57,228 bases of DNA, from the sequence record MK524177.1. One strand, written 5' to 3'. This stretch comes from Escherichia phage PHB10. Shown here in pieces: positions 1-57,228 of this stretch; within the stretch, counting starts at the first letter, position 1; each line of letters starts with the position of its first letter. The notes under the pieces are model-generated. The model had not been told where the DNA came from and searched no databases. It was given only the letters and a program-made list of their open reading frames with translations. The position numbers and the translations under genes are program-made.

Positions 1-165
1 CATCGGCCATGACTGTTTTTCAGGGTTGATGCCTTCACCGGCGATCTGTTCAAATCCGTCTCCGAAGGATGCAGAGCGTGTTGCGTAAGTAAGCTCCCCT
101 TCCATTCCCGCCTGAATCTGGGTTCGCCAGGTAAATGTTTCGATCGCCACCTTTCCTCCGGGCAT
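1..165 (-). CDS. minor tail protein M, N-terminal portion (gene runs off the window start; start ATG 165 or GTG 150)
   Basis: Minus-strand translation ...ETFTWRTQIQAGMEGELTYATRSASFGDGFEQIAGEGINPEKQSW resembles the lambda gpM N-terminus as I recall it (TF.W, GM, FGDG); GGAGG 4 nt upstream of GTG 150. Confidence 0.6.
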   Translation of the reverse strand, partial: MPGGKVAIETFTWRTQIQAGMEGELTYATRSASFGDGFEQIAGEGINPEKQSWPM

Positions 166-1082: not shown

Positions 1083-3995
1083 TTATCTTGATTTCGTTGC
1101 ATTCCAGATGAGACCTCCAGGCTGGAGCTGTTTGGCTATACCTGCGCGTACTGACTGATCAATGGTCTGCTTGTAAGCCCGAGAAATGGCGTCACTGTCA
1201 TCAGAAGCCTGCTGCTGAGTGTTCTGGTTATGAACGATCACGGACGTTTGAACGGTTACGCCGCCAGTTGCCGAAGATTGCAGCCCATACATCGGGGCGT
1301 GGCCAACATAGCCGCCGTTTGCATATCCCTGAGCTCCACGCATAAGCGCATAGAGATTACCGACACCCAGCGCACTGGTCGCTTCCTTCGTAAACACAAA
1401 CTCACCACCGTGAACTACGCCTTTCGGTTGGTATTTGCCGCCATCACCGGTGTAACCGCCGCTATCGAATCCCGGCACCAGACCGCCACCAGAGAAACCA
1501 AAAAACGCCCCGATACCCGTTCCACCAAAGGCTGACTTCATTCCATTAACCAGAGCCAGTTGAGTCAGCATCTGGGTTATGCCCTTCAGGAAGGTAGTCA
1601 GGAAGTCTGAGAAGTTAGATTTACCAGTAGTAAAAAAGTCAGTGAGTGTGCTGGCCATCCCGGTGAACGCATTGTTGGTAATCGTCTGCACCTGCGAGTA
1701 AACATTAGTCGCGCTGTCCTCAAATTCAGCCCAACCCTTTTTCGCGCCGGTCAACCAGTCGCCACGCAACCTGTCCTCTGCATCATAGTAATCATTCGCC
1801 GCTTTAAGCTGCTTCTGATAGCCCTCGTCGTCAAGCGTGCCGCCAGAGTTGATCCAGCCAGAGGAAAGCTGGCTCTTTGCCAGCTCACGTTGTGCCTGAA
1901 GGTCACTCATTCCGGCACCGTTCACTAATGCAGCCTGCTTTTCTGCCATCTGCGTGACGTATTTCTGCGAGGTATCCATGCGCTTATTCAGCAGTTCTTG
2001 CGCAGAAATCTGATCACCCAACAGGGCTTTCTGCCGCGCTAACTGCAGCACCTGGTCTTTACTCGCGAGCAGGGATTGCTCCTGCTTTGTCAGAGAGCGA
2101 GATCGGGAGGCCTCCTCCAGCACCTGAAATTTCGCTTCAGTCGTCCACAGATCTTTGCGCTGCTGGCTGATAGTGTCGTTCAGCCCTTTATGCTGCTGCA
2201 GCGCGCGTAACTGTGCCTGAAGCGCCAGCAGCTCGGCCTGGGCAGCGTCCGTGCTGCGATCGCCAGCCGATAAAGAGCCCTGCTTTCCGGTTTTGGTCTT
2301 TTTGCCAAAAGAAGCGACTCCTTCCCGATCCTTCTGGGTGGTTGCGGTACTTATCTTTCTGGTCGTATCGAGGTATTTACCTGCACTGATATCAGCGGCA
2401 TCCCAGTCTTTTTTCAGCTGAGAGACGCTGTCGCCATAAGCGCCGGCCATTTGTTCGTTATAGTCCTGCCATCCCTGCAAAGTATCCGTTTTCGCCCAGT
2501 CAGGAATGAGATTAATCGCAGCCGCGATAGAGGAAGAAATGATCTGGTTCAGCTTCTGGAAAACGATCGCTACGCTGTAATAAATTGCGTTGAATTCCTT
2601 CAGTGTGTTTGATGCCAGCTCAGCAACCCACTGACCGATACTCTGCATAGCCCCAGACGCCCAGCCCTTGATATCCAGCCACAGGCGACCAAACGGTGTC
2701 AGCGAGTCGTAAGCCTGCTCTCCACGTTCTGCCATCGTATCGCCAAACAGGTCCATAGCCTGCGTAACGGCCGCTGTCTGGTCCTTTTGCTTCACCAGCT
2801 CATCAATGTGCTTAAGCTGTGAAACGGTCAGGAAATTATATTGTTCGTTGAGACTCTGCAGCGCTTTAACAGGGTCTTTTTCGATGTCCTTATAGGCTTT
2901 GGTGATGTCCTGCGCCGAGACTATACCGGTCTGAACCGCCAGCGCCGTGGAGCCCGCTGCTTTTTCAAGTTGCTGCTGTGTCAGCGATCCCATGCCAACC
3001 AGTTCAGTCATTAAACTCTGAACGGTTCCTACAGTCGCGCCAGTAGAGGCAGCAATAGACTGGGAGGAAGCCATGATCTGGAGCGCTGACGTGCCGGCAA
3101 TGTTGCCAGTCCTGATAATAGCCTTGTTGATTTCGTCGTAGGCGGTGAAGTAGTCCGAACCCGCTTTTGCAGCAATCAGAACAGCACCGGCCAGGCCACC
3201 AATGGCCACTCGGGCAGGAGTCACCATCGACAACATCGCTTTCAGAGCATTGTTTACACCGCCAAACGAATCGCGCAGCTGGCCGCCCTGCTGAATGGCC
3301 ACCATATAAACCGGCATACCGGACGCCAGTGAGGTCACAATGTCGGTCATTTGCATCGGGAGATAACGCATCGCGTTGCGGTATTGCCCCGCGCTGATCG
3401 CTCCTGACTTCCACGCTTCCTCCTGCTCTTTCAGTCGGGCGATCATCGGTGCAGCACGATCGGACACGCCAAGTTGGGCTGCTTTTAGCTCTAATAGTTC
3501 TGCGCGCGTTTTTCCGATTGCTGTGACCTGCTCTTCCAGCGAATCGATAAAGGTTTTGCCCGCCGCAGCTGCACGCTGTGCTGCCTGTGCCTGTTCAATG
3601 CGAGCCCGCCCCTCTGCGGTCTCACACTCCATGACCTGCGCCAGTTTAGCTCGGGTCGTCTCAAGCACGCTGTTGTAGCGAGTAAAGTCTTCATCCCCTA
3701 CCAGCCCTTTACCGCGAAACTTCGCCAGGCTCTCCTGGATCGTGTCCAGTTCATCCAGCGCCTTGTTTACCGGGCTAATTTTATTCAGCAGGTTCTGCAA
3801 CTCCTGGCGCTGTTGCTTCAGACTTTCGCTGTTTTTCTTTTGGTTATCGATACCGGTGCGGAACGTACTGTTCAGGTCATCAGCTTTACCTGCCGCGGCG
3901 GTCGCGGTTTCCTGAAAGCGATCCAGTGCCTGATTGCCGCGCTCCAGCTCACTGGTATTTACACGCAGGGAAATCGTGGCGATATCGTTACTCAT
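1083..3995 (-). CDS. tail tape measure protein (H-like)
   Basis: 970 aa, coiled-coil-rich, Gly-rich C-terminus; lies between the G/GT chaperone and M as in lambda; start overlaps the GT stop (ATGA). Confidence 0.85.
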
Positions 3996-31481: not shown

Positions 31482-32168
31482 CTATGCCCTCCCATCAGCC
31501 TTCATTCGCTCATATTTGGCTTTCAAAAGCTCCGCTGGAGTTGGCCCTTTCGATGCCACTGGCGCTGCCAGCGCCCTACGAACAGGCGGAATTGGCTTCC
31601 CGGACAGCACTCGCTTCTCCCACATACCCAGAATCTCGCCAGCCTCGCGCTCGAGCTCTTTCTGACACAACTGGCCATCGGTTCCGCGGCGACGCAGTTC
31701 GAGGCAGATGTGGTAAAAAACCGGCTTTGGCCAGGGATACTGCTCGCTGCTCGGGTACCGGAACACCAGCTTGCGCCACTTCCAGTATTCAGCCATCACG
31801 TCAGCGGTGGTGATCCCCAGCACACAGCGCCCTTCCCTGCACCACTTGATGAACTGGCCTGGCGAAGGCAGGAATGGACGCTCCTGACGACGCACCATGC
31901 GCATTCCCGCTTCAACCTGCTCCAGAGTGGTGATCCCGTTTTCTTTGAACGCCAGCACCCACTGACGGCGAATCTCGTTCACGTCTTCCTGGCTGCGGTT
32001 TACCAGGCTTGCCGGAAACGCAGCCGCCAGCTGTACGAATAGCCCGTTGATAATCTGGGCCACCTGCTGCGTTTGCTCGCGCTCGGTGTACTGCTCAGGC
32101 AGGTTATGCGCCACACGGCGAGCCTGTTCCCGGTCAAAATTGCGAATGCTCTCGGCAAGATTTTTCAT
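31482..32168 (-). CDS. replication protein P (helicase loader)
   Basis: Strong similarity to lambda P as I recall it (NFDREQ.RR.A.N.PEQY, QVAQIINGxF, RRQWVLAF.ENGITT, RPFLPSPGQF). Confidence 0.85.
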   Translation of the reverse strand: MKNLAESIRNFDREQARRVAHNLPEQYTEREQTQQVAQIINGLFVQLAAAFPASLVNRSQEDVNEIRRQWVLAFKENGITTLEQVEAGMRMVRRQERPFLPSPGQFIKWCREGRCVLGITTADVMAEYWKWRKLVFRYPSSEQYPWPKPVFYHICLELRRRGTDGQLCQKELEREAGEILGMWEKRVLSGKPIPPVRRALAAPVASKGPTPAELLKAKYERMKADGRA

Positions 32169-33115
32169 TCCAGCACCCCGTCAATCCAGTCGGTGTTATG
32201 CAGGTCAATACCGCCCCGTGATGGCTTTACCGTTCCGGTAGCGCGTAGCCGTTTGGTAGTGAGCTGATCCCACTGCTTGCGCAGACTCGAGGGGCTCAGG
32301 ATGTTGTCTTTCCAAAACTCGTCCCGGTTGGCCCACTGGAACAGGTCACAGATTTCGTAGTGAGTACGCTTGTCCTGGACGCGCATCAGCCTGATGGTGT
32401 TTGCCCATTCAGCCCAGTTGGGCTCGGATAGCGATGCGTTGACGGTGAGAAGCCTGTCGTAAATCCAGCGGGCGGCCTTGAGGTCGTCAGCGGATCCCCA
32501 TGATTTACCTGCCGGGGTGTATATCCCGTCGGCAGCTTCAGGATGGCGAGAGAGAAACTTTTGAGTTTTCTGGTTTCGGGATTCGTCAGAATTCCGAGAC
32601 GAGGATCTTTTAATATTGTTCTTGTTATAGTCTTGGGTGTCTACCGTTTCCGGGAAGGTTTTTCCCGTTTTCGGCAACACTTTTCCCGATTTCGGGAAGA
32701 CTTTTCCCGTTTTCGGTTTGTCTAAAATCCAGGCGGAAAGGTCAGTATTTATACCGACCGTTTTCATCACCCCCTGCTTCTGACTGAAGATAATTTTGCG
32801 TTCAGCGAGTGATTTGAGCGCATCCGAAACGTGGGAATCACTCAGCCCTGTAAGCTCGGCGATCACCGTGTTCGTAACGCGGTCCTGCTTCTTGTTCCAG
32901 CCGTAGGTAAGCCAGATCACCGCCTCAAAACACTGCCACTCCCGGCCTGACATTCTCAGACGAGGCTTAAGCTGTTGGATCTCGTTAGCGACCTTGGTAT
33001 ACCCGTTCGACAGGTCGGCCATACGACCTCCCGGTTGTTCGGTTCTTTGGGGGAAATTGATAATTTCAGCTGTGTTTGACATACTTAGCTCCGCAATTAC
33101 ACTCCGTTTTTGCAC
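32165..33115 (-). CDS. replication initiator O-like protein
   Basis: Upstream of P with overlapping stop/start; contains the ori iterons, which encode the repeated PKTGK peptide. Confidence 0.8.
   Translation of the reverse strand: MQKRSVIAELSMSNTAEIINFPQRTEQPGGRMADLSNGYTKVANEIQQLKPRLRMSGREWQCFEAVIWLTYGWNKKQDRVTNTVIAELTGLSDSHVSDALKSLAERKIIFSQKQGVMKTVGINTDLSAWILDKPKTGKVFPKSGKVLPKTGKTFPETVDTQDYNKNNIKRSSSRNSDESRNQKTQKFLSRHPEAADGIYTPAGKSWGSADDLKAARWIYDRLLTVNASLSEPNWAEWANTIRLMRVQDKRTHYEICDLFQWANRDEFWKDNILSPSSLRKQWDQLTTKRLRATGTVKPSRGGIDLHNTDWIDGVLE
32628..32711. repeat. replication origin iterons inside the O gene
   Basis: Three 21-bp repeats TTTTCCCG(T/A)TTTCGG at 32649, 32670, 32691 plus a partial inverted copy at 32634; AT-rich stretch at 32590-32627. 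Confidence 0.7.
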
Positions 33116-34833: not shown

Positions 34834-34839
34834 ATTCTC

Positions 34840-35639: not shown

Positions 35640-35651
35640 CTATTGTCTACA

Positions 35652-35677
35652 ACCCGGCCATCGCGTCGGGTTTTTTA
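35652..35677 (+). terminator. intrinsic terminator ending the repressor-module operon
   Basis: 7-bp stem (35652-58/35665-71) with 6-nt loop followed by T6. Confidence 0.6.
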
Positions 35678-41032: not shown

Positions 41033-41245
41033 ATGTCGCAGGTAATATTTAACGAAGAATGGGTTGTTGGCGCAAGGCTCACAGAAAAAACAGGCCTGAC
41101 CGAACGACAGATTGAGAAGTATCGCCAGGGCTGTTGGGTGGAAGGTGTCCATTTTAAACGGGTTTCTCCTTCCGGAGAAAAAACCTTGCGTGGCACAACC
41201 TGGTACAACTATCCGAGAATTAATCAGTTAATAAGGGATGCGTAA
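41033..41245 (+). CDS. xis: excisionase
   Basis: 70 aa basic protein immediately upstream of and overlapping int. Confidence 0.7.
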
Positions 41246-42485
41246 GATGGCAGCTATGCCTACAGGTGTCGAAATCAGAAACAATAAGATTTGTATCTGG
41301 TTTATGTACCGGGGAAAGCGTTGCCGCGAAATTCTCAAAGGTTGGATTAACACTCCGGCGAACATCAAAAAAGCCGGAAATCTTCGGGCTGTGATCGTTA
41401 GTGAGATCAACCTTGGAGAGTTTGATTACCACCAGCGCTTTCCTTCATCGTCCAGAGCAAAAAAAACCGTAACCACTGTTTCAGTTCAAACCTTTTCAGA
41501 GCTGTGTGAACTGTGGACGAGCATTAAAGAAACCGAAATTAGCGCGAATACCATGCGTAAGACGCGCTCACAACTCGGTACGTTAATGCACATCATTAAC
41601 GGAGATACGCCTGTTTCAACTATACGCCACAGCGACATTCTGAAATACAGGAAGGAGCTGTTGAACGGTGAGACACTTTACCTGGCAAATCCCAGAAGTA
41701 ACAAACAGGGACGCACTGTGCGTACCGTGAACAACTATATATCGCTTCTGTGCTCCCTTCTTCGGTTTGCACACAAATCTGGCTTTATCAGTGGCAAACC
41801 ATTTGAAGGGATCAAGAAACTACACAAAGGGAAAGTAAAACCGGATCCTTTAACGAAGCAGGAGTTTAGTTTGCTTGCGGCATCCGAGCGTGGCCAAAGC
41901 CTCAATATGTGGACGTTCGCAGTTTATACTGGTGTCCGTCATGGAGAGCTTGCAGCTCTTGCCTGGGAAGATATCGACTGGGAAAAAGGTACGGCTCATA
42001 TACAGCGCAACCTTAATGCGCTAGGAATGTTCGTCCCACCAAAAACCGATGCAGGTGATCGAGTTATCACGCTATTAGAGCCGGCACTTGAAGCCTTGAA
42101 AGCACAGCGCAAGCTAACAGCGCTGCAGCCTAAAACCGAAATTGTCTTTAATCATCGCGAGTATGGCGCAGTGGAACATCAAAGCCTGCGATTCGTTTTC
42201 ATACCCCGGATGCGCAAAGGAGAACAGAAAGCCTACTACTCTTTATCGAGCATCGGTGCGAGATTCAACGCAGCTGTAAATCGTGCTGGTATTCGCCGCC
42301 GGAATCCGTACCATACGCGGCATACTTTTGCCTGCTGGCTTTTATCTGCCGGCGCTAACCCGTCTTTCATAGCCAGCCAGATGGGGCATGAAAACGCGCA
42401 AATGGTTTATGAAGTCTACGGTGCGTGGATTGAAGAAATGAATGGCGAACAGGTGCTGATGCTTAACGATAAGCTGGCACGCTGA
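41238..42485 (+). CDS. int: tyrosine integrase (lambda-type with N-terminal arm-binding domain)
   Basis: C-terminal catalytic motifs (R...[28 protein letters not shown]...Y); 415 aa; adjacent to the repeat-flanked att region. Confidence 0.9.
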
Positions 42486-42493
42486 AAAATTTT

Positions 42494-42740
42494 TGCCCCT
42501 ATTATGCCCCTATTGGCTCCGAAGGTAGTAATAAATGCAAGAAAATCAACAAAATACAAAGAAAGAGCAATACAACCTGAATAAGCTACGCTGATTTTGC
42601 CAACTCATTGATATCATTTGTTTTTCATTTAAATCAATTAGTTATAGCATAATAGTTTCTCCCTAAAGCTACCCAGAACTACAATTTTAGTGCCCTTTTT
42701 TTGCCCCTATTTCGCATTTTTGCCCCTAAATTTGCCCCTA
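42494..42740. repeat. attP-like attachment region: five direct TTTGCCCCTATT arm-type repeats flanking an AT-rich core
   Basis: Perfect TGCCCCTA at 42494, 42505, 42702, 42721, 42733 (degenerate copies at 42691, 42772); AT-rich 42513-42690 between clusters; starts 6 nt after the int stop. Confidence 0.5.
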
Positions 42741-42811
42741 TCTTTAGCCAGTGCGCCACCCTTATTCTCCCTGCCCTATACTTTAAGTCTGACATCTGGT
42801 TCGAGGTTTCT

Positions 42812-43486
42812 ATGTGTGGACGCTTTGCACAAGCTCAAACGCGTGAAGAATATCTGGCTTACCTGGCCGATGAAGCCGATCGCGACATCGCATACGACCC
42901 TGAACCTATTGGACGTTACAACGTGGCGCCAGGTACCAAAGTTCTGTTGCTGAGCGAACGTGACGAGCAGTTGCATCTCGATCCGGTCCTGTGGTCTTAC
43001 GCGCCCGGGTGGTGGGATAAAGCACCATTGATAAACGCGCGTGTCGAGACAGCGGCCACCAGCAGGATGTTCAAACCTCTCTGGCAGCATGGCCGGGCAA
43101 TCTGCTTTGCTGATGGATGGTTCGAGTGGAAGAAGGAAGGCGACAAGAAGCAGCCATATTTTATTCACCGGGCAGACGGTCAGCCGATATTTATGGCCGC
43201 GATCGGCAGCATACCGTTTGAGCGAGGCGATGAAGCAGAAGGTTTTCTGATAGTAACGTCTGCCGCTGACAAAGGCCTAGTGGATATTCACGACCGCCGG
43301 CCCCTGGTCCTATCACCAGAAGCGGCCCGGGAATGGATGCGCCAGCATGTTGGAGGAAAAGAAGCGGAAGAGATTGTATCTGACGGCTCTGTACCAGCTG
43401 AGATGTTTGTCTGGCATGCTGTGTCCCGTGAAGTAGGAAATGTAAAAAATCAGGGGAGAAAATTGATAGAACAAATAGATATATAA
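42812..43486 (+). CDS. SOS response-associated peptidase (SRAP / YedK-like abasic-site processing protein)
   Basis: Starts MCGRF (catalytic Cys2 hallmark); about 225 aa. Confidence 0.85.
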   Translation: MCGRFAQAQTREEYLAYLADEADRDIAYDPEPIGRYNVAPGTKVLLLSERDEQLHLDPVLWSYAPGWWDKAPLINARVETAATSRMFKPLWQHGRAICFADGWFEWKKEGDKKQPYFIHRADGQPIFMAAIGSIPFERGDEAEGFLIVTSAADKGLVDIHDRRPLVLSPEAAREWMRQHVGGKEAEEIVSDGSVPAEMFVWHAVSREVGNVKNQGRKLIEQIDI

Positions 43487-43537
43487 TCTGATGTACTTTT
43501 GATGTGTACTTTATATTTGGTTTAATATTATCTCCCT

Positions 43538-43738
43538 TTAAGAAAGAAATATATTTGCAGCCATCGGACCACTAACCCCATTTATACGATAAAATTCAAC
43601 ACGAACGCCAGGTTTTAACGTTTGGCTTTCATTATTACTAAATGCGGAAATATGTAAAAAAACATCTTTCCTGCCATCTGATGGGATAATCAATCCCTTT
43701 CCGCTCTTGAAGTCAAAACTTTTGACAATTCCTGTCAT
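43538..43738 (-). CDS. cold-shock-domain protein (CspA family)
   Basis: [33 protein letters not shown]... RNP-like motifs. Confidence 0.8.
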
Positions 43739-44037
43739 TTTACGAGACAAATATTTTCCTAATGGCAATCCAGATTTGACTATACAGGATTGGTTAATAA
43801 TAGCCAAACCTATTTTATTGGCCTTCCGGAAGGCTAAAATAAAATTTGCTTAATCTTTCAGCACGTGCCTTAATGGTTTGGCTGATTCATTGCGATGATG
43901 AATCTAACTTTTCCAAAAGCCGTTCTCATAACTAGGTGTTATCTCTGATATCCCTCCTTTTGAGTCCATACATATACCAGCATACGTTTCTTATCATGAG
44001 CTTGCTTGTCAGTTTGAAATGTTCAAACGGAGTTTGT

Positions 44038-44256
44038 ATGTCATCTAAAATCATAGGTCTTGTTAAGTGGTTTAACGAAGATAAGGGGTTTGGCTTTATC
44101 TCCCCACTTGATGGAAGTAAAGATGTTCTTGTTCACACTTCTTCCCTGCGGGGAGAAACATTTAATACTCTTTTTGAAGGACAAAAAGTCAAATTCGCTA
44201 TCATAGCTGGAACTAAAGGTCCAATCGCTGCCAATGTAACACTTTGCGATAGATAA
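44038..44256 (+). CDS. cold-shock-domain protein (CspA family)
   Basis: [35 protein letters not shown]; start 44038 with GGAG SD. Confidence 0.85.
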
Positions 44257-44497
44257 TTTTAGATGGTTTACTTAAGCCAGCATGACTTTATCAGTGAAAG
44301 GTGATGTTCGGTTACTCACATCATTACAACAGGCCAGCATATTTACTTACCATCAAGTTTGCTGACCGATGTGATGAAATGCAGGACTGCTGCATGAACA
44401 GTCTCAAAGCAGAAGCTAACTGCTTATAAAATACTAAAGTGCGTAAGAGGTTAGGCAGCCTCCAAAAGCATCACTTCTTATTTTTTAATAATTTTTT

Positions 44498-44662
44498 TTA
44501 GAAGCGCTGGGAAGATTTGAACAAAGCACAGCAGTATGGGCACACCAACTGAGCCCCCTTTTGTACACGATTGTAACTATGTTCGGAATCTTTTGAGCAG
44601 TTTGGACAAGGACATTTTACCAAATAATTTCGGCGGAATTGAGTATTTTTACGTGCAGACAT
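44498..44662 (-). CDS. small Cys-rich zinc-ribbon protein
   Basis: 54 aa from MSARKN with CPCPNC...CPYCC; GGAGAAG SD. Confidence 0.4.
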   Translation of the reverse strand: MSARKNTQFRRNYLVKCPCPNCSKDSEHSYNRVQKGAQLVCPYCCALFKSSQRF

Positions 44663-44810
44663 AGACTTCTCCAGTTCAAATGGACCGTTACAGTACACGT
44701 TAAGACTGTATAATGCTTGTTTTAATTTCGAAAGAGGCAAAAAAAATGAACAAACAGAACTCTTTCGACCACCTGCAGGGGCTAGAAACCCTCAAAATAC
44801 ATGGTGATAT

Positions 44811-45038
44811 ATGAAAAAAGTAATCATTTTTTTTAATGGTAAGCCAAGTAAAGTTATCACTGTGCTTAAAGGTGTGACATCAATACTCGAAGAATATCCT
44901 AATGGAGAAGTGATAAACCTTCAGATAATGTCAGCAGGTTTTCCCTCTTTAACAGGTGACCATGAAGTGGTTTATGTGGCATCAGATCGAGAGCTTACCT
45001 CTCAGGAAATATTAGATGCGGCGCAGAAGTATCTTTGA
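44811..45038 (+). CDS. hypothetical protein (self-contained AT-rich moron)
   Basis: 75 aa ORF with its own terminator. Confidence 0.4.
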   Translation: MKKVIIFFNGKPSKVITVLKGVTSILEEYPNGEVINLQIMSAGFPSLTGDHEVVYVASDRELTSQEILDAAQKYL

Positions 45039-45099
45039 CGCCTGAGATTCAACGCCAACATTCATAAAATCATTATTATAACTACGTTTAATTATTATG

Positions 45100-45124
45100 G
45101 CCTGCTTAATGCAGGCTTTTTTTT
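45100..45124 (+). terminator. intrinsic terminator
   Basis: gcctgc-ttaat-gcaggc followed by T8. Confidence 0.65.
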
Positions 45125-45211
45125 ACCCCCACACAAACAATTATAATTAAGACAAGTGCATCCAACATCATGGCAATATGACTTTATTGCTGAAGCAACC
45201 ATAAGGCTTCC

Positions 45212-45550
45212 ATGAAAATCCTACAATACACAGTATTAATAGTTATTGAAGCACGATCCTCAGATAATAATATCAACCCTCTTCTCTTGGGTCTCTTGCA
45301 TGACAGAAACTATTCAAGTAAGTCAAACCGAGGCGTTAAACTTCCATCCCATGCATTCATTGGTTCAGAGGGGCAGGCAGTTTTAGAGTGGCAGTCTGAA
45401 AAAGATGGAGCAGAAATACTAAAAAAAAGACTCTACCAGATGCTGCATGGAATTACACGTTTAGAAGAGTTTCCCACAGCAATTTTTCTAATGATTTGCC
45501 CAGAAGAAAAAACCTTAACCTTTGTTTCAAGACTTAAAGAAAAAAAATGA
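45212..45550 (+). CDS. hypothetical protein (AT-rich moron)
   Basis: 112 aa ORF. Confidence 0.4.
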   Translation: MKILQYTVLIVIEARSSDNNINPLLLGLLHDRNYSSKSNRGVKLPSHAFIGSEGQAVLEWQSEKDGAEILKKRLYQMLHGITRLEEFPTAIFLMICPEEKTLTFVSRLKEKK

Positions 45551-45926
45551 ACATCGTTATTTCAGCCTTCACCATCTCAAAATGCTGCGATCGTGAAAAC
45601 TGCGAAAGAAAATCATGAGGCACATCAGTAAATATTGTATCATTTGCTAAGCATTGCTGTTACATTCGGTTTAATGATGAATCCTCCTAAGCGGCAGGGC
45701 TAATTAACCTGATGATTTGTATATCAAGCGGCTCATCGTGAATTTCTGAAGCAGCGAGTCACGAGTGGTTAGGTCAATGACTCACCGGGAGGCACCCGGC
45801 ATCATATCCGTAAGCCCCTGTATAATTGCAGGGGCTTATTTACATTACAAAAGCATAGTCTTAGACATATTACTGTTAATACTCATAGCCGATAATTAGG
45901 CTCGAATGAATAGACCGTTTAAAGAA

Positions 45927-47195
45927 TCATCTAACTTTTATTAGGTCTGAATACCTCGTAGTATATCGTGGAGATAACATATCCCGTTTCATCTGCCACT
46001 GCTGCTGTATGCCCTGCCCGGCAAAGTAAAGCGTTCCTTTTCCATCTTTCGCGTTCAAGTGATCGAGCACCTCCATCAACTTATCGCTTCCTGCGCGTGG
46101 AGCGTTCTCATCGAAAAGGTTCAACTGCGCCACCCCTTGGCTGAAAAAATCTCCCAGCATGATTCCAGCCTTTTGATAGCGATAGCCATCCTTCCAGATT
46201 TTGTCCAGGCACTTTACCGCGGCGTTGATTATGTCGCGGGAATCCTGTGTAGGGGTGAGAAGCTTCATGGACGCGCTGTTACCGTAATATGGCTCGTTAA
46301 GCGCAAAGGGAGAGGTTTTCACGAACGCAGAAATAAAGCGGCAGTACTGATGCTCTCCCCGCAACTTTTCTGCGCCTCGGGCCGCATAACTGCAAATGGC
46401 CTGCCTCATTTGTTCGTAATCAGTGACGCGTTCACCGAATGACCTGCTACAGACGATCTCCTGCTTTGCCGGCGCAAATTCCTCCAGCTCGAGACAGGGC
46501 TCGCCGCGCAGCTCCCGGACAGTTCGCTCCAGGACGACATTAAAGTGTTTGCGGATAATCCACGTGCTTTGTTCAGAAAGGTCCAGAGCTGTTTTGATGC
46601 CCATGGCATTCAGCTTCTTACTGATGCGCCTGCCTACGCCCCATACATCTTCTACTGGCACGATGTCGAGCAATCGGCGCTGGCGGTCGATATTGGATAA
46701 ATCAACTACCCCTCCCGTTTGCCGCTGCCATTTCTTCGCGGCGTGGTTGGCCAGCTTGGCCAGTGTCTTTGTCTGGGCAATTCCAATCCCGACAGTCAGG
46801 TGCGTCCGCTTCAGAACGGTAGCGCGGATTTCTTTGCCGAACTCAGTAAGATCCCGGCAATTGCGAACACCTGTTAGGTCACAAAATGCTTCATCGATAC
46901 TGTAAATTTCTACGCGAGGGCTCAACTCCTCCAGTGTGGTCATTACTCGATTCGACATGTCTGCGTACAGCTCGTAGTTACTGCTGAAGCAAACAACCCC
47001 AGCGCGCCGAAATAAGTCCTTTTGCTTGAAGAAAGGCTCTCCCATTGTAATTCCAGCCGCCTTGGCCTCGGCGCTGCGCGCGATTACGCAGCCGTCATTG
47101 TTCGAAAGAACAACCACTGGCCGCCCTTTCAAATCGGGACGAAACACCGTCTCGCATGATGCGTAGAACGAATTCACGTCGCAGAGCGCAAACAT
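45927..47195 (-). CDS. umuC: translesion DNA polymerase V catalytic subunit UmuC
   Basis: Y-family polymerase N-terminus [15 protein letters not shown]; 422 aa; directly downstream of umuD. Confidence 0.9.
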
Positions 47196-47197
47196 AC

Positions 47198-47617
47198 TCA
47201 GCTCGCCGATTTGACGATGAAAGTAACAACGCCGAAAACGTCCAGCGTATCTTCGCTGCCTACAACAATCGGACTGTAGGCGCTATTCATTGGGATGAGT
47301 TGGACATTTGGACGCAACTGCAAACGCTTAACAGTGAATTCCCCTTCAACCGCGGCGATGACAATGTCACCGTGCTCAGCCGTGCGCGAACTATCCACCA
47401 CCAGCAGATCACCGTCGCTTATCCCGGCTTCGATCATTGAATCCCCCGCGGCTTTGACGAAATATGTAGAGCTCGGGTGAGCGACAAGTAACTCATTGAG
47501 ATCGATACGCTGTTCAACGTAATCAGCTGCGGGGCTTGGGAAACCACACTGTACTAAGTCACTGAAAAGCGGAAGAGCGATAATATCTCGCAGTTCTGTT
47601 GGCCTGATGAATTCCAT
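47198..47617 (-). CDS. umuD: UmuD (LexA-like S24 peptidase, polymerase V accessory subunit)
   Basis: 139 aa from MEFIRP; Ser-Lys dyad context (AAGDSM ... VKRL). Confidence 0.9.
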
Positions 47618-47632
47618 TGCACACACCTCAAA

Positions 47633-47652
47633 TACTGTTTTTATATACAGTA
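47633..47652 (-). promoter_or_regulatory. LexA (SOS) box upstream of umuDC
   Basis: TACTGTTTTTATATACAGTA fits CTGT-N8-ACAG, 16 nt upstream of the umuD start. Confidence 0.8.
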
Positions 47653-47858
47653 GTTTTATTTGTAAGTGTCCGCAAGATACAGGCCCTATCGTCACTGCTT
47701 AAAGCTTCGCCGTTTCGTTTCTAAGTTTATCTCTCGTTTCGAATTATCTCTTTTGTAAATTTTTCAATAATGGCGCAGATGTAAGCAGATTTGAGGGAGA
47801 CAAAGCCCGTTAAATGCCAGAACGGGCTGCGACTGAAAGCTAAGTCTTCATGATTCCG

Positions 47859-49406
47859 CTATTTTTGCTTAAGCTCCTGGAGCTCTTTCTGTGTTGCCTC
47901 CAGCTGTTTAATGACGTAGTTCAGTGCCAACACGGTATCAAGCATGATGACGTTGCTATCCAGCGCTAACGTATCGTCAGCATCAACCCTGTTGCCTTCA
48001 CCATCAAATTTCGGTGCTGCAGGGACCAACGTTACGTACTCACTGTCGATCTTCATGACATCCTGAGCGATAACACCTCGGCGAACTCTCTCCAAAGGGT
48101 CATCGTTGTATACGTAAGTTGCTGGCAGGAATTTCTTGATATTCTCGTATGACTGATAACCATCATCGTATTTCACACTATGTTTCAGTTCGATATCACA
48201 GTTTGGTTGTTTAGAGAAAATATAATTGCCCCCAAAACCACCACTGCCTGAAACTGAAATATCCGCGGTAACGGTATTAAACGAGAAAATACGCGTTCCT
48301 GCAGATCCGCTATCACCAATGGTTACAAGTTCAATAGATGGCCAGTTGCTTTTCCCCTGGGAAATAGATCCAAGAGCGGTAACGGCGTGATACCCCCCTG
48401 AGCAATAGGTATGCCACCTGCCAAATGGTACAAATCCACTATCGTTTGGAGTTGATAGGTTTGGGCGTGCAAACGATGTGTTCGTGCTGTAGCCGTTAAC
48501 AATATCTTGGTAACCGCCACCGTACCCCTCACCGGGGCCGATATGACTTTTAGACTGAAACGCACCATAAGGGTACCAGCGGAAATCAGCACCGGAGCTT
48601 ACACCGTCAAAGATGTTCATTTGTACCCGAGCTAAATCAGTTCCCGCGCCGCGTACTGCACCGAGCCGCCAGGTGCCCGAATAATAGTTACCAGAAAGCC
48701 AGTTAACATAATTCTCGGCCGGACCATCGGAGCCAACATTACCTAAAGTAATGGCTTTATTACCCCCACTACCAGTAGCGATACCGACCTCATTACCTGC
48801 GGTTGAGATTATGCTTCCTGTAACAGTACCGCCTAACTTTCCTTCAATGGTGTTAAGACGCGAATCATTCCCGGCCGCCACGGTTCCGGCAGCCGTTCCA
48901 ACGTTTTTGGTGGCGCTGTCTCCCAAATCGAGGTTTTTGCGAGCGTCTGCGGCATTCGTTGCGCCGGTTCCGCCGTCTGCGACAGCAAGCGCACCGTTGC
49001 TCCCTTTCTGTGCCAGTTTACCGATGCCAGGGATGGTTACGGAGGTGCCGTTGATGGTTACGGTGATGCTCTGATTGGCTGAGGTTGTGGCGAACGTATC
49101 CCACGCGCCAATATTCTCGTCATACTCTTTGATGAGCTGCGACATGGCCTGTGCCAGTCCGTCGACAGAGATATTGTCGGACACCAGGATTCCATACTTC
49201 TGGCCGCTCAACGCCGGGGAAGCAGCTGGCGTAACCGTCATTGACGTGGCGCTGTTCACGGATGAAATCTGGAACATCTGAACCGGGTTAGACATGACGA
49301 TAATCGTCTGGCCAGCGCGAACCTGGCTGGCCGGTGCCGTCCAGTTCGTGCCCGTGCCGGTGGCGGTGTTTCCGTTAATGGCGATGGTGCCAGTGTTATA
49401 AAGCAT
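47859..49406 (-). CDS. tail fibre protein with C-terminal intramolecular chaperone-like domain
   Basis: Gly/Thr/Ser-rich repeats; C-terminal region ending in coiled coil LEATQKELQELKQK; start MLYNTG at 49406 with GGAGAA SD. Confidence 0.65.
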   Translation of the reverse strand: MLYNTGTIAINGNTATGTGTNWTAPASQVRAGQTIIVMSNPVQMFQISSVNSATSMTVTPAASPALSGQKYGILVSDNISVDGLAQAMSQLIKEYDENIGAWDTFATTSANQSITVTINGTSVTIPGIGKLAQKGSNGALAVADGGTGATNAADARKNLDLGDSATKNVGTAAGTVAAGNDSRLNTIEGKLGGTVTGSIISTAGNEVGIATGSGGNKAITLGNVGSDGPAENYVNWLSGNYYSGTWRLGAVRGAGTDLARVQMNIFDGVSSGADFRWYPYGAFQSKSHIGPGEGYGGGYQDIVNGYSTNTSFARPNLSTPNDSGFVPFGRWHTYCSGGYHAVTALGSISQGKSNWPSIELVTIGDSGSAGTRIFSFNTVTADISVSGSGGFGGNYIFSKQPNCDIELKHSVKYDDGYQSYENIKKFLPATYVYNDDPLERVRRGVIAQDVMKIDSEYVTLVPAAPKFDGEGNRVDADDTLALDSNVIMLDTVLALNYVIKQLEATQKELQELKQK

Positions 49407-49420
49407 ATTTTCTCCAGGCA

Positions 49421-49447
49421 ATAAAAAACCCCGCCGAGGCGAGGTTT
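49421..49447 (-). terminator. terminator-like GC hairpin after the small lipoprotein gene
   Basis: GC hairpin followed on the minus strand by a U-run, just upstream of the fibre RBS. Confidence 0.4.
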
Positions 49448-49464
49448 GCATTCAAAGTCGTGAG

Positions 49465-50490: not shown

Positions 50491-50789
50491 GCATTCTCCA
50501 CGAAGACCACCAGTTCACATTCCGAGGCCGGATAATTACCAATACCAACTTCGCTGGCAGTGCTGAGAGTGATGGTGTTCCCGTTAGCGATAATGCGTCG
50601 ACCCACCGAGACCGCGCCCTTATCAAGGGACACCGCAAATCCGACCTTCATCCCCGCCGGAATGGTAAAGGACCAGTTGCCCGAGGTTTGCCCCTCGGAA
50701 AGCTGAATACGCCCTACCACTGATACGGGTTTGATACCGTAGTTGTTCGGGATGCCGTTGGCGTCCCAGGTCTGAATACCCCAGGCCAT
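50487..50789 (-). CDS. tail-associated protein of unknown function
   Basis: 100 aa; start overlaps the J stop. Confidence 0.4.
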   Translation of the reverse strand: MAWGIQTWDANGIPNNYGIKPVSVVGRIQLSEGQTSGNWSFTIPAGMKVGFAVSLDKGAVSVGRRIIANGNTITLSTASEVGIGNYPASECELVVFVENA

Positions 50790-53700
50790 TAAAACACTCC
50801 TGTAAGTTTGCCTATCTGAACACGGAGCCTGTTAGCATCCCGAATGCTGATGGTGACGTTAGTCTGCTTCATGCCTCCGGAACTGTCGCTCCCGTAGTTC
50901 TGCATCGTTCCGTCTTTACCCCAGCGCCAGCCAGCGCTTCCGGCAACATAATTATTAGACTGCAGAGAATCCGTAATTTTACCGAACTGGATACTCGCAT
51001 CACGGAAGAACGCATCATTGATGAATGTCTGCCCGTTCTGGATAACAAATGGCAAAGAAACAGTGCTGCCAGCTTGGGAGGTAACGGCAAAACGGTCGGC
51101 CAGGAAGATAACCTGTGACTGCATCCCTGATGGCGTATTCTCCACCCCGATCCCCATTCCTGCAGCGTAATACTGGCCATTACTCGTTACCCCAACTTTG
51201 ATGTTGTACATCGCGCTGAGCTGGCCGTTTACGTTCGCAATGGCCTGGGCGTTCGTGGTGATAGAGGCAGTATGTCCATTGACTGTCGCCGTAATAGCAT
51301 TTATCTGCGTGGCTGTAGACTGCTGATAATTCGAAACCGTATCGCTCAGGCTGTTGATGGATGCCGTATTACCGTTGACGTTCGTTTGCAGACTCAGCAA
51401 TGCGCGTGCCGTTGCCTCCCTGTCATTGACGATCACCTCATCAATGCGGTCTAGCTGCGCGCTGTTACCGGCAACCGAAGCCGACAGGGTTTTACGTGTG
51501 GCCACCTGAGCGAGGTTGGCCTGGATTATCGCAATTGCCGAGTTCTTCACGCCTCCTGTCATGCCGTCCATCGAAACAGAAATCTCGTCTATCTTCACTT
51601 CGGCCTGCGCCAGCCCGTCAGCGTTCTCCTGGATGTCTTTCGCCTGCTGCTCGAGCTCGTCGGCATGCTTTTTAATGTCATCCGCCATGCCTGCAACTTT
51701 TTCGTTGCTGTCCACTGCGTTCTCGATCAGGTCTTTGAAGGTATCAGAGTCTTTCATTCCCTCCAGAATCACATCGGTGATGTCAGAAACATCGATACTT
51801 GCCTGTCCTCGCACCCATTCTGTGTACCCTGATTCGTTGCCGCTGCGGTCCACCAGCTGCGCGCGGTACCAGAAAATCTGCTCAGCCTTAAGGCCCATCT
51901 GCTGATATTTGCGCTGCGGGTAAGGCACATCGGCCAGCAGCATCGCATCTTCTTCGGTACCAGTCAGGCTGTACTGAATTTCCGTCTTCAGCGTGTCGTC
52001 GGTATTCGCCGGGAATCCCCAGTTGAGCTCGATACCGAATACCACGCTTTCAGAAGCGATGAAGCCAACCGGCTTCGGTGGATTGCCCACTTTACCCGTC
52101 AGCGTTTTCTCTTCTGAATAGCCCCAGCCTGACGAAATTTCGGCAGCATTGATGGCGCGCACGCGCACCAGGTAGCGCCCGGCATAAATCCCCGGGACGT
52201 CGAATGATGTGGTGGAGCTGCGCGGCACGTTAACCCAGTTCCCGTCGTTGCGGCGCCATTGCGCTTCATAGGCGATAGCGTTCTGCGCCTGGTCCCAGCT
52301 CACGCGCATCGTTTCGACACTGATATTTTGCTGCACCACAGAAAACGAGCTGATGACGATGTTCGCAGGCGGCGACTGGTTGCCCGGCGGGATCACGCTC
52401 ACCGGCCGCTGGTCAATGATGGCTCCGGTATCAATGCGATCGAATTTATCCGGATCGTGATTTGCACCGACGATTGTGAACGTGCCGTCATTATTATCAG
52501 TTACTGTAATAACGCGATACTGCTGTGCGTAGAGCTCATCAGACTCAATGACCCATACGGCCTCGGCCTGTGGAAGCTCGCTAAAGGCGGTTGTCACGGT
52601 AACCATTCCACCTGACAGGGACTGAATCGTCCGGGATTGGGTAATACCCGACGGCAGGTTTACCATTATCCTGTCACCGGCCTTAGCACTTGGCACCCGG
52701 TCAAGTTTGAGTACACGACCATTAACCGCGGATAATCGACCGCCTAAATCTCGGCCAGAGAGATTTCGGTCAGCGACAGCAATTATGTAGCCAGGCTGAG
52801 GAATATTGCCGTCCAGACCAACGTCAAACGTTACAATCCTATCTTTATTGTTGGTCAGGATCCCCCAGCGCCCTTTCCTGTTAGCCTCAGATTGCCGGGT
52901 GCATCCGATAGCGGTGATCTCAAGCTGGTTGAAACCATAGCGCGCCACCAGAGCCTGCTCGAAGACGGGCTCCATTGCGTCAGCATAGCCATTTGCCGGA
53001 TCCGACCAGGAAACAAGAGCGTTTGTGTAGCGACTTTTAGTTGTGCTACTGGAATACACAAATTTGCCGTCAACTACGTTAGCGTGCGTGTAGGTAAAAT
53101 CGACATCTCTGGGCATGTCTGCAAGGGCAACAATCTGGTCGTCTCCCCAGTAGGTCATACCTCGAAAAATGGCGGCAAAGTCTCGCAGCACAGTGTAAGC
53201 GTCATTTCGATCTTGAATGTATACGTTGCAGGTGTAACGCGGTTCAGTTCCGCTCCCCCCCTTACCATCCGGTACCAGTTGATCACAATACTGAGCGACC
53301 TGATAAAGGGTCCATTTATCAATATTGGCTGCTGTTAGCCGATTACCAAGGCCGAAGCGGTCAGTGACTACCAGATCGTAAAATATCCACGCAGGGTTAT
53401 CCGTCCATGCCCACTTAAATGCTCCCGTCCAGGTGCCGCTGTACGTTCGTGTTTCTGGGTCATAGGTATCGGGCACACGAATAACACGCCCGCGGGGCTC
53501 GCAAGAAATTTGCGGAATTGAGCCATTGAACTGGCTCGAATCAAATTCGATGTACAGTAGCGCGGTGTTCGGATAGCGCAATTTGGCGTCGATTACTTCT
53601 GTGAAGCTTTGCAGCGTCATCGTGTCGCCAATCTTAGCGCTATTTGCGTCTGCGGTAATCTTGCGCAGCCTGATGGTCCAGGTGCTGCCCGCCTGAGGTA

Positions 53701-54238
53701 AATCAATACGGTGGCTGCGTTCATAACCAGAGGTGGTTTTCCCGGTCACGCTGGTATTTAGCACCGTCTGCCAGGTACCGCCATCTGTCTGCAGGTCAAA
53801 TGCGTAGTTGACCGAATAGCCAACCAGATCGCCATCGTCCTCCTGTTTGAAGAGAGAAGGCCATTTTAGACGCAGGCGAACAGCTGAAAGCTGCGTATTG
53901 GTGAACGTGCGCGTCCACGCTGTAGAGCTGGAAACTTCGGAACCTACATTGATTTCATTTTCGGTACCTGGGATCCCTTGAATGTATTTTTGCGCCTGAG
54001 TTCCAGAACGAAACTCCCACGCCACGCCGCTGAAGTTCTGTGAACCATCTGCGTTCTCAAGTGCGGTGCCATCGAGATAAATATCGCGCGCAGTAAGTCC
54101 ACCAGCAAACTCCCCCTCTCCCAGCGCGAGAAGGATTTTTGCCTTGGCAACTGACTGCAGGTCGTCTGGCTGTTCTGTAGGAGTTCTTGAGCTTGAACTG
54201 CCGCCCTTGCGGCCTTTAATAGCGGTTGCTATAGCCAT
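50789..54238 (-). CDS. host specificity / central tail fibre protein J
   Basis: 1149 aa; lambda J-like length, composition and position after I. Confidence 0.9.
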   Translation of the reverse strand: MAIATAIKGRKGGSSSSRTPTEQPDDLQSVAKAKILLALGEGEFAGGLTARDIYLDGTALENADGSQNFSGVAWEFRSGTQAQKYIQGIPGTENEINVGSEVSSSTAWTRTFTNTQLSAVRLRLKWPSLFKQEDDGDLVGYSVNYAFDLQTDGGTWQTVLNTSVTGKTTSGYERSHRIDLPQAGSTWTIRLRKITADANSAKIGDTMTLQSFTEVIDAKLRYPNTALLYIEFDSSQFNGSIPQISCEPRGRVIRVPDTYDPETRTYSGTWTGAFKWAWTDNPAWIFYDLVVTDRFGLGNRLTAANIDKWTLYQVAQYCDQLVPDGKGGSGTEPRYTCNVYIQDRNDAYTVLRDFAAIFRGMTYWGDDQIVALADMPRDVDFTYTHANVVDGKFVYSSSTTKSRYTNALVSWSDPANGYADAMEPVFEQALVARYGFNQLEITAIGCTRQSEANRKGRWGILTNNKDRIVTFDVGLDGNIPQPGYIIAVADRNLSGRDLGGRLSAVNGRVLKLDRVPSAKAGDRIMVNLPSGITQSRTIQSLSGGMVTVTTAFSELPQAEAVWVIESDELYAQQYRVITVTDNNDGTFTIVGANHDPDKFDRIDTGAIIDQRPVSVIPPGNQSPPANIVISSFSVVQQNISVETMRVSWDQAQNAIAYEAQWRRNDGNWVNVPRSSTTSFDVPGIYAGRYLVRVRAINAAEISSGWGYSEEKTLTGKVGNPPKPVGFIASESVVFGIELNWGFPANTDDTLKTEIQYSLTGTEEDAMLLADVPYPQRKYQQMGLKAEQIFWYRAQLVDRSGNESGYTEWVRGQASIDVSDITDVILEGMKDSDTFKDLIENAVDSNEKVAGMADDIKKHADELEQQAKDIQENADGLAQAEVKIDEISVSMDGMTGGVKNSAIAIIQANLAQVATRKTLSASVAGNSAQLDRIDEVIVNDREATARALLSLQTNVNGNTASINSLSDTVSNYQQSTATQINAITATVNGHTASITTNAQAIANVNGQLSAMYNIKVGVTSNGQYYAAGMGIGVENTPSGMQSQVIFLADRFAVTSQAGSTVSLPFVIQNGQTFINDAFFRDASIQFGKITDSLQSNNYVAGSAGWRWGKDGTMQNYGSDSSGGMKQTNVTISIRDANRLRVQIGKLTGVF

Positions 54239-54288: not shown

Positions 54289-54891
54289 TTACTGTTGGTC
54301 TTCTACATAGATACCGGCGGAGATGATCGCGCCACCTATACGGCGCCGTCCGTACAAGAGTGGTACCGGATTGCCCTGAGCTGTCGTATTTGTTACTCCA
54401 CCAAAGGCATAACTGGCCTTGTTGTCTGCCGATTGCTTGCTGGCAAGTCCGGTTGTCTGTGGAGAAAGCATTTGAACGACACCGCCAAGGGCCATCGCAG
54501 CGCCAAATTGCATTAGAGGAACGCCGACAGCACCACCGCCAAAGTATGACGCCACAGCACCAACTGCGACCAAAGCCACACCTAAGATGGTCTGGAATAC
54601 TCCACCACGTTTACTCCCGAGGATAACCGGCGCGATACGGATATCAGCGGTACTCTGATCCATAGAGAGTTCATCATCGTTCAGGTTACGCTTACCGCTG
54701 AATACAGCGTAAGTAAGCCCACGCTGCTTGCTGGTATTCAAAAACCGCTCGAAGCCTGGCACTATAACGCACAATGCACGGATGGCTTCTTTAGGCGAAG
54801 CAACAGAAAGTTTGAATTCACGACCAAATGTTGAGCCAAGTATTCCATAGAGGCGTATGGTTCTCATCGGCTGACCAGTTAAAAATGTCAT
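54289..54891 (-). CDS. tail assembly protein I
   Basis: Lambda gpI-like; likely start MTFLTGQ at 54891 with GGAGG SD. Confidence 0.8.
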   Translation of the reverse strand: MTFLTGQPMRTIRLYGILGSTFGREFKLSVASPKEAIRALCVIVPGFERFLNTSKQRGLTYAVFSGKRNLNDDELSMDQSTADIRIAPVILGSKRGGVFQTILGVALVAVGAVASYFGGGAVGVPLMQFGAAMALGGVVQMLSPQTTGLASKQSADNKASYAFGGVTNTTAQGNPVPLLYGRRRIGGAIISAGIYVEDQQ

Positions 54892-54985
54892 ACATGCCTC
54901 CAAAGTCTCTCTTGACTAAGAGAGACTATTAATGTTGATAGACTTTTTGATGTTTTTAACACGCAATCCAAGAATTCAAATCAAC

Positions 54986-55633: not shown

Positions 55634-56347
55634 TTATATAAACTTCGATTGATGGCGAAGGATTTTGTTTGTCCTCTCACGCCAATATCCACCATATGGC
55701 ACACGCTGGCTTAAATGACCGTAAAGATGATGAAGTAAGATATCACCTTCAAGCAATATGCCGGCATGGTTCCACTTGTTAGACTGAACTTGCATGATCA
55801 CCATATCCCCCGGTTGCAGCGGCCCGTCGAATTCACGGAAACCACACTCATACCAGCAATCCTGATAGAAATTGTCCAGATAGCAGTCCTCCCACCACGG
55901 ATAATCAACACGGTAATCTTTCAATTCGATACCATGTTCCTGCCTGTAATAGCTCATCACCAGTCCCCAACAGTCATAGTGTCCAAGCACAAACGGCCGC
56001 CCGATCAGTGGCAAATCACCGCGGGGAGTGATGGTGCGAAAGTCGCCTTCCGGCCAACTGACAATATGCCAGGGCAGCAACGTTGCATCGCATTGAGCCT
56101 TGTCCAGTTCGCTTGGTTGGGTTGTCGCGTCAGGGTGACTATGTACGATTCCCGTTATCGTCCCCCAGTCTTCAGCAGCGGCGTAATCCTCTGGTGAAAG
56201 GTGAAACTGTTCCGTTGGTTCAGCAGCCAGATTACGGCATGGAAAATAGCGTTCCACCCGGCTTTTCTGCGCTATCACGCCGCAGCATTCGTGGGGATAG
56301 TCTTTCGCAGCATGTGACAGGATGTCCTGAATTGTTTTCTGACGCAT
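55634..56347 (-). CDS. tail assembly protein K (JAB/MPN plus NlpC/P60 domains)
   Basis: JAMM motif HSHPDATTQPSELD and NlpC/P60-like Cys in YDCWGLV. Confidence 0.85.
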   Translation of the reverse strand: MRQKTIQDILSHAAKDYPHECCGVIAQKSRVERYFPCRNLAAEPTEQFHLSPEDYAAAEDWGTITGIVHSHPDATTQPSELDKAQCDATLLPWHIVSWPEGDFRTITPRGDLPLIGRPFVLGHYDCWGLVMSYYRQEHGIELKDYRVDYPWWEDCYLDNFYQDCWYECGFREFDGPLQPGDMVIMQVQSNKWNHAGILLEGDILLHHLYGHLSQRVPYGGYWRERTNKILRHQSKFI

Positions 56348-56348
56348 G

Positions 56349-57104
56349 TTAACTCCTGATCAAAGATGTTCCCGGAAAACCACCGAAAGGAAGTTCATTG
56401 TGTTCACCAAACCGAAGCTTGCAGGCGGTGAGCGTGCCGTTGCATTCATCCAATGAGGGATCGCTTACCGGATTGTTGTTTCTGTCGAAGTAAAGCGTGC
56501 CGGCATAATCGCACCCATCGCCGGTGCGGTACCTATTCCGGATGCACCATGTGCAAAGGGAATGCAACTGTCTGGTCGGAATCATCAATCCCTGCAGATC
56601 CATCGGGCTGGTAAGAACAAACTCGATACTTTCACCGGGAAGCTCACTATTTTTACCGTCGATATAGAAAACCCGCTTCCTCACCTGCAAGGGATCTGCT
56701 GTTGGATTTCCATCCGAGAAATTGCGCGCATCCAGGTAATGCGCAAAAGTGTCATGAATCGTAACTTTGGCCTGCAGCATATCGTCATAGGCCAGACAGA
56801 GCGCAGTGATAGAGCTGTCAATGTTGGCGACGGTGAGCGTCGGCTGGGCGCTACTGCCATCGGTTGACGCTTCCAGTCCCTCGAGCTTATATGGCCAGGC
56901 ACCATACTCTTCGCCCTGCCACCAGATACTCTTCGCCTTTAACTTTGATTCGTCGCCGCCAGCAGCCGCAATCTCTTCTTCAGTATGCGGGAGGTTATAA
57001 GCGTGAAAGCGCAGAACGTCGTCCAGACCAAACGCAGAACCGTCTACCTCAAGAAGACGTATTTTTTCACCCGGTTCGAGGTGTTGATAATCTTCAGTAA
57101 TCAT
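56349..57104 (-). CDS. minor tail protein L
   Basis: 251 aa with C-terminal Cys cluster CTWC...C...C as in lambda gpL; start overlaps the M stop (ATGA). Confidence 0.85.
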   Translation of the reverse strand: MITEDYQHLEPGEKIRLLEVDGSAFGLDDVLRFHAYNLPHTEEEIAAAGGDESKLKAKSIWWQGEEYGAWPYKLEGLEASTDGSSAQPTLTVANIDSSITALCLAYDDMLQAKVTIHDTFAHYLDARNFSDGNPTADPLQVRKRVFYIDGKNSELPGESIEFVLTSPMDLQGLMIPTRQLHSLCTWCIRNRYRTGDGCDYAGTLYFDRNNNPVSDPSLDECNGTLTACKLRFGEHNELPFGGFPGTSLIRS

Positions 57105-57228
57105 GGTGCGTATGCCTGTTTGAAGGTTGCTTTTATAGTCATCACTTTGCTGGATAGCGGCTGGACTTTAATGGAATCAGCTTCAATCCGGTATAAACCG
57201 GTTTCGCCGACAGGAGACGTCCAGATAA
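57105..57228 (-). CDS. minor tail protein M, C-terminal portion (gene start lies beyond window end)
   Basis: Open frame ...IWTSPVGETGLYRIEADSIKVQPLSSKVMTIKATFKQAYAP* ending at TGA overlapping the L start; resembles the lambda gpM C-terminus as I recall it. Confidence 0.6.

Follow-up and report, generated by a model that had tools for sequence, protein, structure and literature searches.

Both edges of the window, by which we mean the whole 57,228-nt stretch of DNA analysed here, are ends of one minor tail gene on the minus strand that resembles the gene for phage lambda gpM. Its 5′ part (1..165) reads, from 165 to 1, MPGGKVAIETFTWRTQ...EKQSWPM and comprises 55 codons from the ATG at 165 (full translation, MPGGKVAIETFTWRTQIQAGMEGELTYATRSASFGDGFEQIAGEGINPEKQSWPM), or 50 codons from the GTG at 150, which is the M start called in relatives. 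Its 3′ part (57101..57228) consists of 2 nt of a split codon, 41 codons that read IWTSPVGETG...KQAYAP on the minus strand of 57226..57101 (full translation, IWTSPVGETGLYRIEADSIKVQPLSSKVMTIKATFKQAYAP), and a stop at 57101-57103 that overlaps the ATG of an L-like gene at 57104. These translations agree with the original prediction, which had placed both edges inside the same gene, M, with a gpM-like N-terminus on the minus strand of 1..165 and a C-terminus ending at the L start on that of 57105..57228.

To relate the two fragments to each other, exact 41-mers from both window edges were scanned in IMG/VR. Both co-occur in 6 contigs, in the order window end, 70 nt, window start, and BLAST gave the same 70-nt spacing in 24/24 IMG/VR loci retrieved with the edge sequences; in one of these (L001, where the 70-nt segment is 557-626), the identity to the window is 100% on both sides of this segment. 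When the window ends were aligned with 38 full-length copies of M (19 distinct alleles, 363 columns, 0 gaps), they proved contiguous with 70 nt between them. The missing piece thus amounts to 24 codons including the split one; that a piece was missing had been foreseen, and the earlier estimate of roughly 20 codons needs this correction. Adding the 70 nt to the window restores the frame and yields an M ORF of 120 amino acids, or 115 as called in relatives from the internal GTG. The rebuilt 120-residue product matches phrog_14, 'minor tail protein', in a single stretch from residue 5 to 119 (E=7e-33), and the 115-residue products of relatives match PF05939 (Phage_min_tail). Fusing the edges without the 70 nt shifts the M frame and leads to an early stop, as expected from the prediction that the reading frames do not join directly. 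The two fragments, which might have come from clearly different genes, belong to one gene from which 70 nt are absent in the window, and the agreement is far beyond chance. The product resembles lambda gpM in its size, its whole-length family match and the place of its gene between the tape measure and L/K/I/J; it differs in that an extra gene for a DUF6694 lipoprotein parts M from the tape measure.

Possible causes of the 70-nt gap

The cause of the gap is probably technical. No hairpin is found in the 70-nt segment (z = −0.30), no repeats flank it, and it has no similarity to lambda or vectors. Hypervariability as a cause of the break was rejected, with 13/70 variable columns in the missing segment compared with 32/165 and 19/128 in the flanks. 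In IMG/VR, there is no alternative allele, inversion or deletion junction at this segment, and no contig starts at its right border.

The same borders do recur elsewhere: the ends of four independent public contigs coincide with them to within one base. M position 166 is the end of two ENA contigs in metaSPAdes style (L036 and L057), a JGI contig ends at position 234 (L011) and a MEGAHIT contig starts at 235 (L058). No contigs ending one codon either side of these borders appeared in the look-ups; an exact look-up of the 50- and 55-residue edge fragments of M returned only two short ENA contigs, and that of the 41-residue fragment returned no record. Such recurrence would be expected if a 68-70-nt M segment underwent site-specific excision or inversion. 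The rearrangement would turn this tail-tip gene off in a fraction of the population, and assemblies would then break where the segment begins and ends. We consider this highly improbable. M position 111 is a common SNP and the last leftward difference in 10/18 alleles; k=55 is the default largest k of metaSPAdes and k=123 is used in JGI MEGAHIT runs, and 111+55 = 166 while 111+123 = 234. Three of the four contig ends thus equal a common SNP plus a standard k, and the fourth agrees with k=127 if one counts from the M/L junction. Moreover, no alternative junction is present in IMG/VR, and 46 other contigs (37 from IMG/VR and 9 from JGI metagenomes) run through the segment. Graph arithmetic from SNP 111 plus k is the most economical account of the recurrent ends, and a site-specific effect was dropped as their explanation.

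For the window edges themselves, the distances to the common SNPs at 111 and 291 are 54 and 55 nt, which misses a clean k=55 fit by one base on one side; they would agree with a k=55 assembly if the sample had contained a second element that is identical between these two SNPs. Alternatively, a FASTA line may have been lost. The line width of NCBI efetch FASTA is 70, and because 57,298 = 818×70+38, the window corresponds to a 57,298-nt record minus exactly one full line.

The gap could also be genuine: if the source were a closed circle of 57,228 nt from which the 70 nt are really absent, the phage would be defective, its M frameshifted. With a 70-nt deletion allele, graph branch points would fall exactly at the window edges, and the fused edges do give a truncated ORF. 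The point of linearisation would, however, have to coincide with the deletion, IMG/VR holds no deletion allele beside these flanks, and the same 37 IMG/VR and 9 JGI metagenome contigs pass the borders intact, which makes a true deletion very unlikely.

Gene map and cargo

Gene identities were assigned by PHROG and Pfam scans of the window ORFs; the DinI-like gene was named solely from relatives' gene calls. Across the junction, the order is tape measure H, lipoprotein, M, M, L, K, an ORF, I and J, and it is the same in all relatives. On one side lie the DUF6694 lipoprotein gene (204..1007) and the H-like tail tape measure gene (1083..3995, identified by a profile match); on the other lie the genes for minor tail protein L (56349..57104), tail protein K with its JAB/NlpC-P60 domains (55634..56347), an I-like tail assembly protein (54289..54903) and the central tail fibre J (50789..54238), all on the minus strand. 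The predicted continuity of gene order (H, lipoprotein, M on one side and M, L, K, I, J on the other) is confirmed by this map; the ORF that had been taken for I was the wrong one. This ORF, 54986-55597, was rejected as gene I for having no family match, and the I-like tail assembly gene is 54289-54903. Past J follow a lom-like gene, a membrane protein gene and a side tail fibre gene with an S74 chaperone domain (47859..49451, minus strand).

The remainder of the map is that of a lambdoid phage. The head and packaging set comprises the small (13150-14136) and large (11865-13187) terminase genes, present in a single copy on the minus strand (11865..14136), portal, a Mu-F-like head protein, scaffold, major head protein and adaptors, and further tail genes encode the tail terminator, major tail protein and chaperone. 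The integration and recombination block contains attP, int, xis, DUF4060, recT and recE, where the RecE/RecT module near xis/int is recognised by PF06630 and PF12684 on a 1057-residue ORF and by PF03837 on a 361-residue ORF. The immunity and replication block consists of the repressor region, ydaS/ydaT-like genes and lambda O/P-type replication genes (31482..33115, minus strand). Past the 9.4-kb cargo island described below come late control and lysis genes (DinI-like, NinB, RusA, Q, tRNA-Arg, holin, endolysin and Rz), and an Ivy-like gene leads back to the terminase. Terminase, portal, head, tail, lysis, Q, O/P, repressor region, recET, xis and int are each present in one copy, and a self-comparison of the window revealed no large internal repeat, showing that it holds one genome and not more. 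The window is one genome length, 57,228 + 70 = 57,298 nt, with every lambdoid module present once.

Several smaller features accompany these modules. The 203-residue ORF 54986-55597 between K and I has no PHROG or Pfam match; in two relatives (L029 and L031), the same slot holds a 59-residue ORF and a Fic-domain gene, and it looks like a moron exchange slot within the tail operon. The DUF6694 slot between the tape measure and M is likewise variable, with unrelated sequence in many relatives, and in L036 the tape measure directly adjoins M. A tRNA-Arg gene with anticodon TCT (17805-17881) lies between the Q antiterminator and the lysis genes. Inside the O gene, 3.5 copies of the 21-bp repeat CCGTTTTCGGGAAGACTTTTC (32644-32716) are probably origin iterons, as in lambda. 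To the right of the repressor gene, the region 34412-35819 contains three ORFs of 106, 125 and 140 residues that match no family, and megablast against the retrieved relatives gave no match for it. In the corresponding slot, which is variable and possibly defence-related, relatives carry DUF6932 and BstA_C genes.

Two blocks in this map looked chromosomal. The first (42812..47695), between attP and the tail fibre gene, carries genes for an SRAP peptidase (YedK-like), two cold-shock proteins, UmuC and UmuD, with small ORFs between the csp and umu genes; a YnfU-like small ORF also occurs in the att-proximal cargo according to relatives' gene calls. The second is a 9.4-kb block (21945-31233) of bacterial-type metabolic and regulatory genes inserted between the replication gene P and DinI/NinB, encoding an esterase, an HxlR regulator, NmrA-like and SMP-30/gluconolactonase-like proteins, a YdcZ exporter, an amidohydrolase, two LysR regulators, an aldo/keto reductase and a flavodoxin-fold reductase. 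We rejected host DNA as the origin of either. SRAP-umuDC is found at the prophage end beside att in E. coli and Enterobacter relatives, including the att-proximal end of an E. coli prophage (L025) that occupies a different site, dcp, where it lies next to tail fibre genes. The 9.4-kb block has P on one side and DinI/NinB on the other in every relative, with 99-99.8% identity, and the integrated relatives reside in Enterobacter. Judged by these gene neighbourhoods, both blocks are phage cargo that travels with the phage. The 9.4-kb block brings the genome to 57.3 kb; classical lambdoid phages have genomes of about 48 kb, and at this larger size efficient packaging is uncertain.

One further feature is private to the window, namely a perfect tandem duplication of 115 bp (14907..15136, two units) that covers the ribosome-binding site, start, signal peptide and first 31 codons of the Ivy-like lysozyme-inhibitor gene (14588-15001). 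The unit is single-copy in 16/16 IMG/VR relatives carrying the sequence, and the unit-unit junction (15021/15022) was not found in IMG/VR. The duplication may be a private mutation, or it may be a closure overlap that was left untrimmed in a circular contig before this was rotated, in which case it would itself support that the record had been handled as a circle.

The attachment site and its chromosomal target

Genes for an IntR/XisR-like pair, an excisionase (41033-41245) and a tyrosine integrase (41238/41247-42485), lie on the plus strand at 41033..42485 and are followed by attP (42490..42741). An exact-product look-up of the integrase, using both starts, returned no record. We located the attL end of integrated relatives by exact-protein look-up with the excisionase and the attR end by look-up with the SRAP protein. 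On the attL side, chromosomes of 4.6-4.9 Mb read recE-recT-DUF4060-xis-int, 50 nt, a gene of 311 codons, and then dbpA, ynaL and zntB; the 311-residue product is TtcA, scoring 511 bits with the NCBIfam equivalog NF007972, whose cut-off is 272. On the attR side, the host genes pfo, an ompN-type porin, GFA, glyoxalase and DUF1294 are followed by SRAP, csp, csp, umuC, umuD and the tail fibre. The integrated relatives thus occupy the 5′ end of ttcA in Enterobacter chromosomes. Two of these genomes (GCA_023154415.1 and GCA_023752225.1) carry the attR end and an intact H-lipoprotein-M-L region about 10-16 kb apart, and in two locus pairs (L030/L051 and L033/L053) the same genomes carry intact M.

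Alignments identified a 71-bp core (42514-42584) that is common to attL, attR and the window. To the left of the core, the window follows attL, with the integrase end and TTGCCCCTA repeats, and is unlike attR; to the right, it follows attR, with an AT-rich stretch, more TTGCCCCTA repeats and SRAP, and is unlike attL, which runs into ttcA. The window is thus attL-like up to 42584 and attR-like from 42514, so that the predicted arrangement, with int and an att-like site internal and attP in place of attL/attR, holds at base resolution. The TTGCCCCTA-type repeats on both sides of the core (int-proximal, 42490-42513; distal, 42687-42741) are putative arm-type integrase sites.

The core carries an ATG and 18 codons that resemble the TtcA N-terminus, providing a substitute ttcA start (MQENQQNTKKEQYNLNKL). 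This fits the published arrangement of Rac, whose attL lies inside ttcA and whose integration alters the TtcA N-terminus (PMC4632033). The xis-int-att region aligns with E. coli intR/xisR/ttcA at 67.9% nucleotide identity. On the host side of attR, integrated relatives (L051:4594-4694, L069:1158-1458 and L068) retain a 100-250-bp remnant of an integrase 3′ end, so that the 'attB' of those relatives is itself a scar left by an earlier Rac-like prophage.

Physical state of the DNA and comparison with known phages

The identity of the edge gene, the gap of 70 nt, the single set of modules and the attP are observed features, from which we infer the physical state of the DNA and its circularity. 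In the reading that we favour, the window would be a complete copy of the phage minus 70 nt, in its non-integrated form and opened inside the gpM-like gene. The IntR-type tyrosine integrase would insert the phage into the 5′ end of ttcA, and excision would rejoin the int arm and the cargo arm at the 71-bp core, giving the arrangement seen in the window. The source would be circular, concatemeric or circularly permuted phage DNA, from an excised or replicating prophage or from virions, and its arbitrary opening point would be the work of an assembler or of a slicing step; the window, and not the phage, would then lack the 70 nt. We put the probability that free circular, concatemeric or permuted phage DNA was the source at roughly 0.7. 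Two considerations point in this direction: a slice cut from a larger record would have only about a 0.1% chance of matching one genome length to within 70 nt, and a short-read contig that passes the 71-bp att core unbroken would imply few attL and attR molecules in the sample.

An internal attP is also expected in a dilysogen, where a true attP lies between the two copies in the same gene order as in the window. In principle, a chromosome with two prophages in tandem (attL-phage-attP-phage-attR) could have been cut in M of the first copy and again in M of the second to give the window, and relatives are commonly integrated as prophages at the ttcA site. We regard such an array as unlikely, since a slice of unit length minus 70 nt would be the coincidence of about 0.1% given above if the repeat did not guide the cutting, both copies would be merged into one by a short-read assembly, and none of the retrieved chromosomal relatives shows one.

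A singly integrated prophage should yield a contig bounded by the att core, so that passage through the core indicates either real attP molecules or a wrong join. In the latter case, the core, a direct repeat at attL and attR, would have produced a graph cycle, which the assembler walked and then broke in M. The 71-bp core does exceed common k values such as 55, and a 57,206-nt Logan contig of a close relative (L074) seems, from its coordinates, to span attR to the int 3′ end; if so bounded, it would show that a core-to-core edge exists in such graphs. This explanation needs both a wrong pairing of cores and a separate break in M, whereas the normal graph output is a core-bounded contig, as L074 appears to be, and paired reads would favour the true host-phage pairings. 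We give a false join as little weight as the tandem array.

The original prediction had left the source open between a circular phage or phage-plasmid contig, an excised form and a tandem array. The attP form and the single genome length are borne out; a phage-plasmid is very unlikely. A replicon kept outside the chromosome would agree with the non-integrated arrangement and with an O/P replicon with iterons, but the ORFs scanned with Pfam and PHROGs (all except a few small ones) include no partition, plasmid-replication or telomere-resolvase genes, int, xis and attP are complete, relatives are integrated at ttcA, and PLSDB holds no match.

Free phage DNA thus remains the preferred source. In having one genome length, an internal attP and an arbitrary opening, the window resembles excised or induced prophages recovered as circular contigs in isolate and virome assemblies. 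It differs from them in its internal 115-bp tandem duplication, in the missing 70 nt and in the absence of a terminal k-mer overlap. Typical de Bruijn circular contigs have a terminal repeat, whereas the first and last 300 nt of the window share no 8-, 10- or 12-mers and the ends stop 70 nt short of meeting. The edge break in M is probably an ordinary consequence of the assembly or slicing of circular phage DNA and no new biological feature, and the truncation of M is not a real one. The window is to be regarded as an entire temperate phage genome (about 57.2-57.3 kb) in the excised form, not as a prophage with host flanks, and it is in this frame that the att-side cargo, the metabolic island and the attachment site are to be read.

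The DNA is unlike that of lambda, with no megablast match in the phage collection and a single blastn match, to Cronobacter phage phiES15, at 68%. Megablast of the window gave no matches in GenBank phages or PLSDB, and the window edge sequence was not found in GTDB representative genomes. One relative resides in E. bugandensis CP039452 (PMC6639611), and others in E. cloacae, E. chuandaensis and E. sichuanensis.

This temperate phage of the Enterobacter cloacae complex joins the Rac-like lambdoid group. With Rac of E. coli K-12 and the prophages CP-933R and Sp10, which are rac-like, it shares a xis-int-att region alignable to intR/xisR/ttcA, an attachment core located in ttcA at the 5′ coding end, where the phage supplies a substitute N-terminus, recE-recT, and ydaS/ydaT-like genes beside O/P. 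It differs from Rac in the divergence of int/xis, which are just 67.9% identical at the nucleotide level, in the hosts of its relatives, which are Enterobacter and not E. coli, and in its cargo of SRAP, csp, umuDC, the Ivy-like gene and the 9.4-kb metabolic island. Rac of K-12 is a decayed remnant of 23 kb, whereas the genome described here looks complete, with full head, tail and lysis modules. Although of modest interest, it adds to this group an apparently complete Rac-like Enterobacter phage that targets ttcA and brings its own substitute ttcA start.
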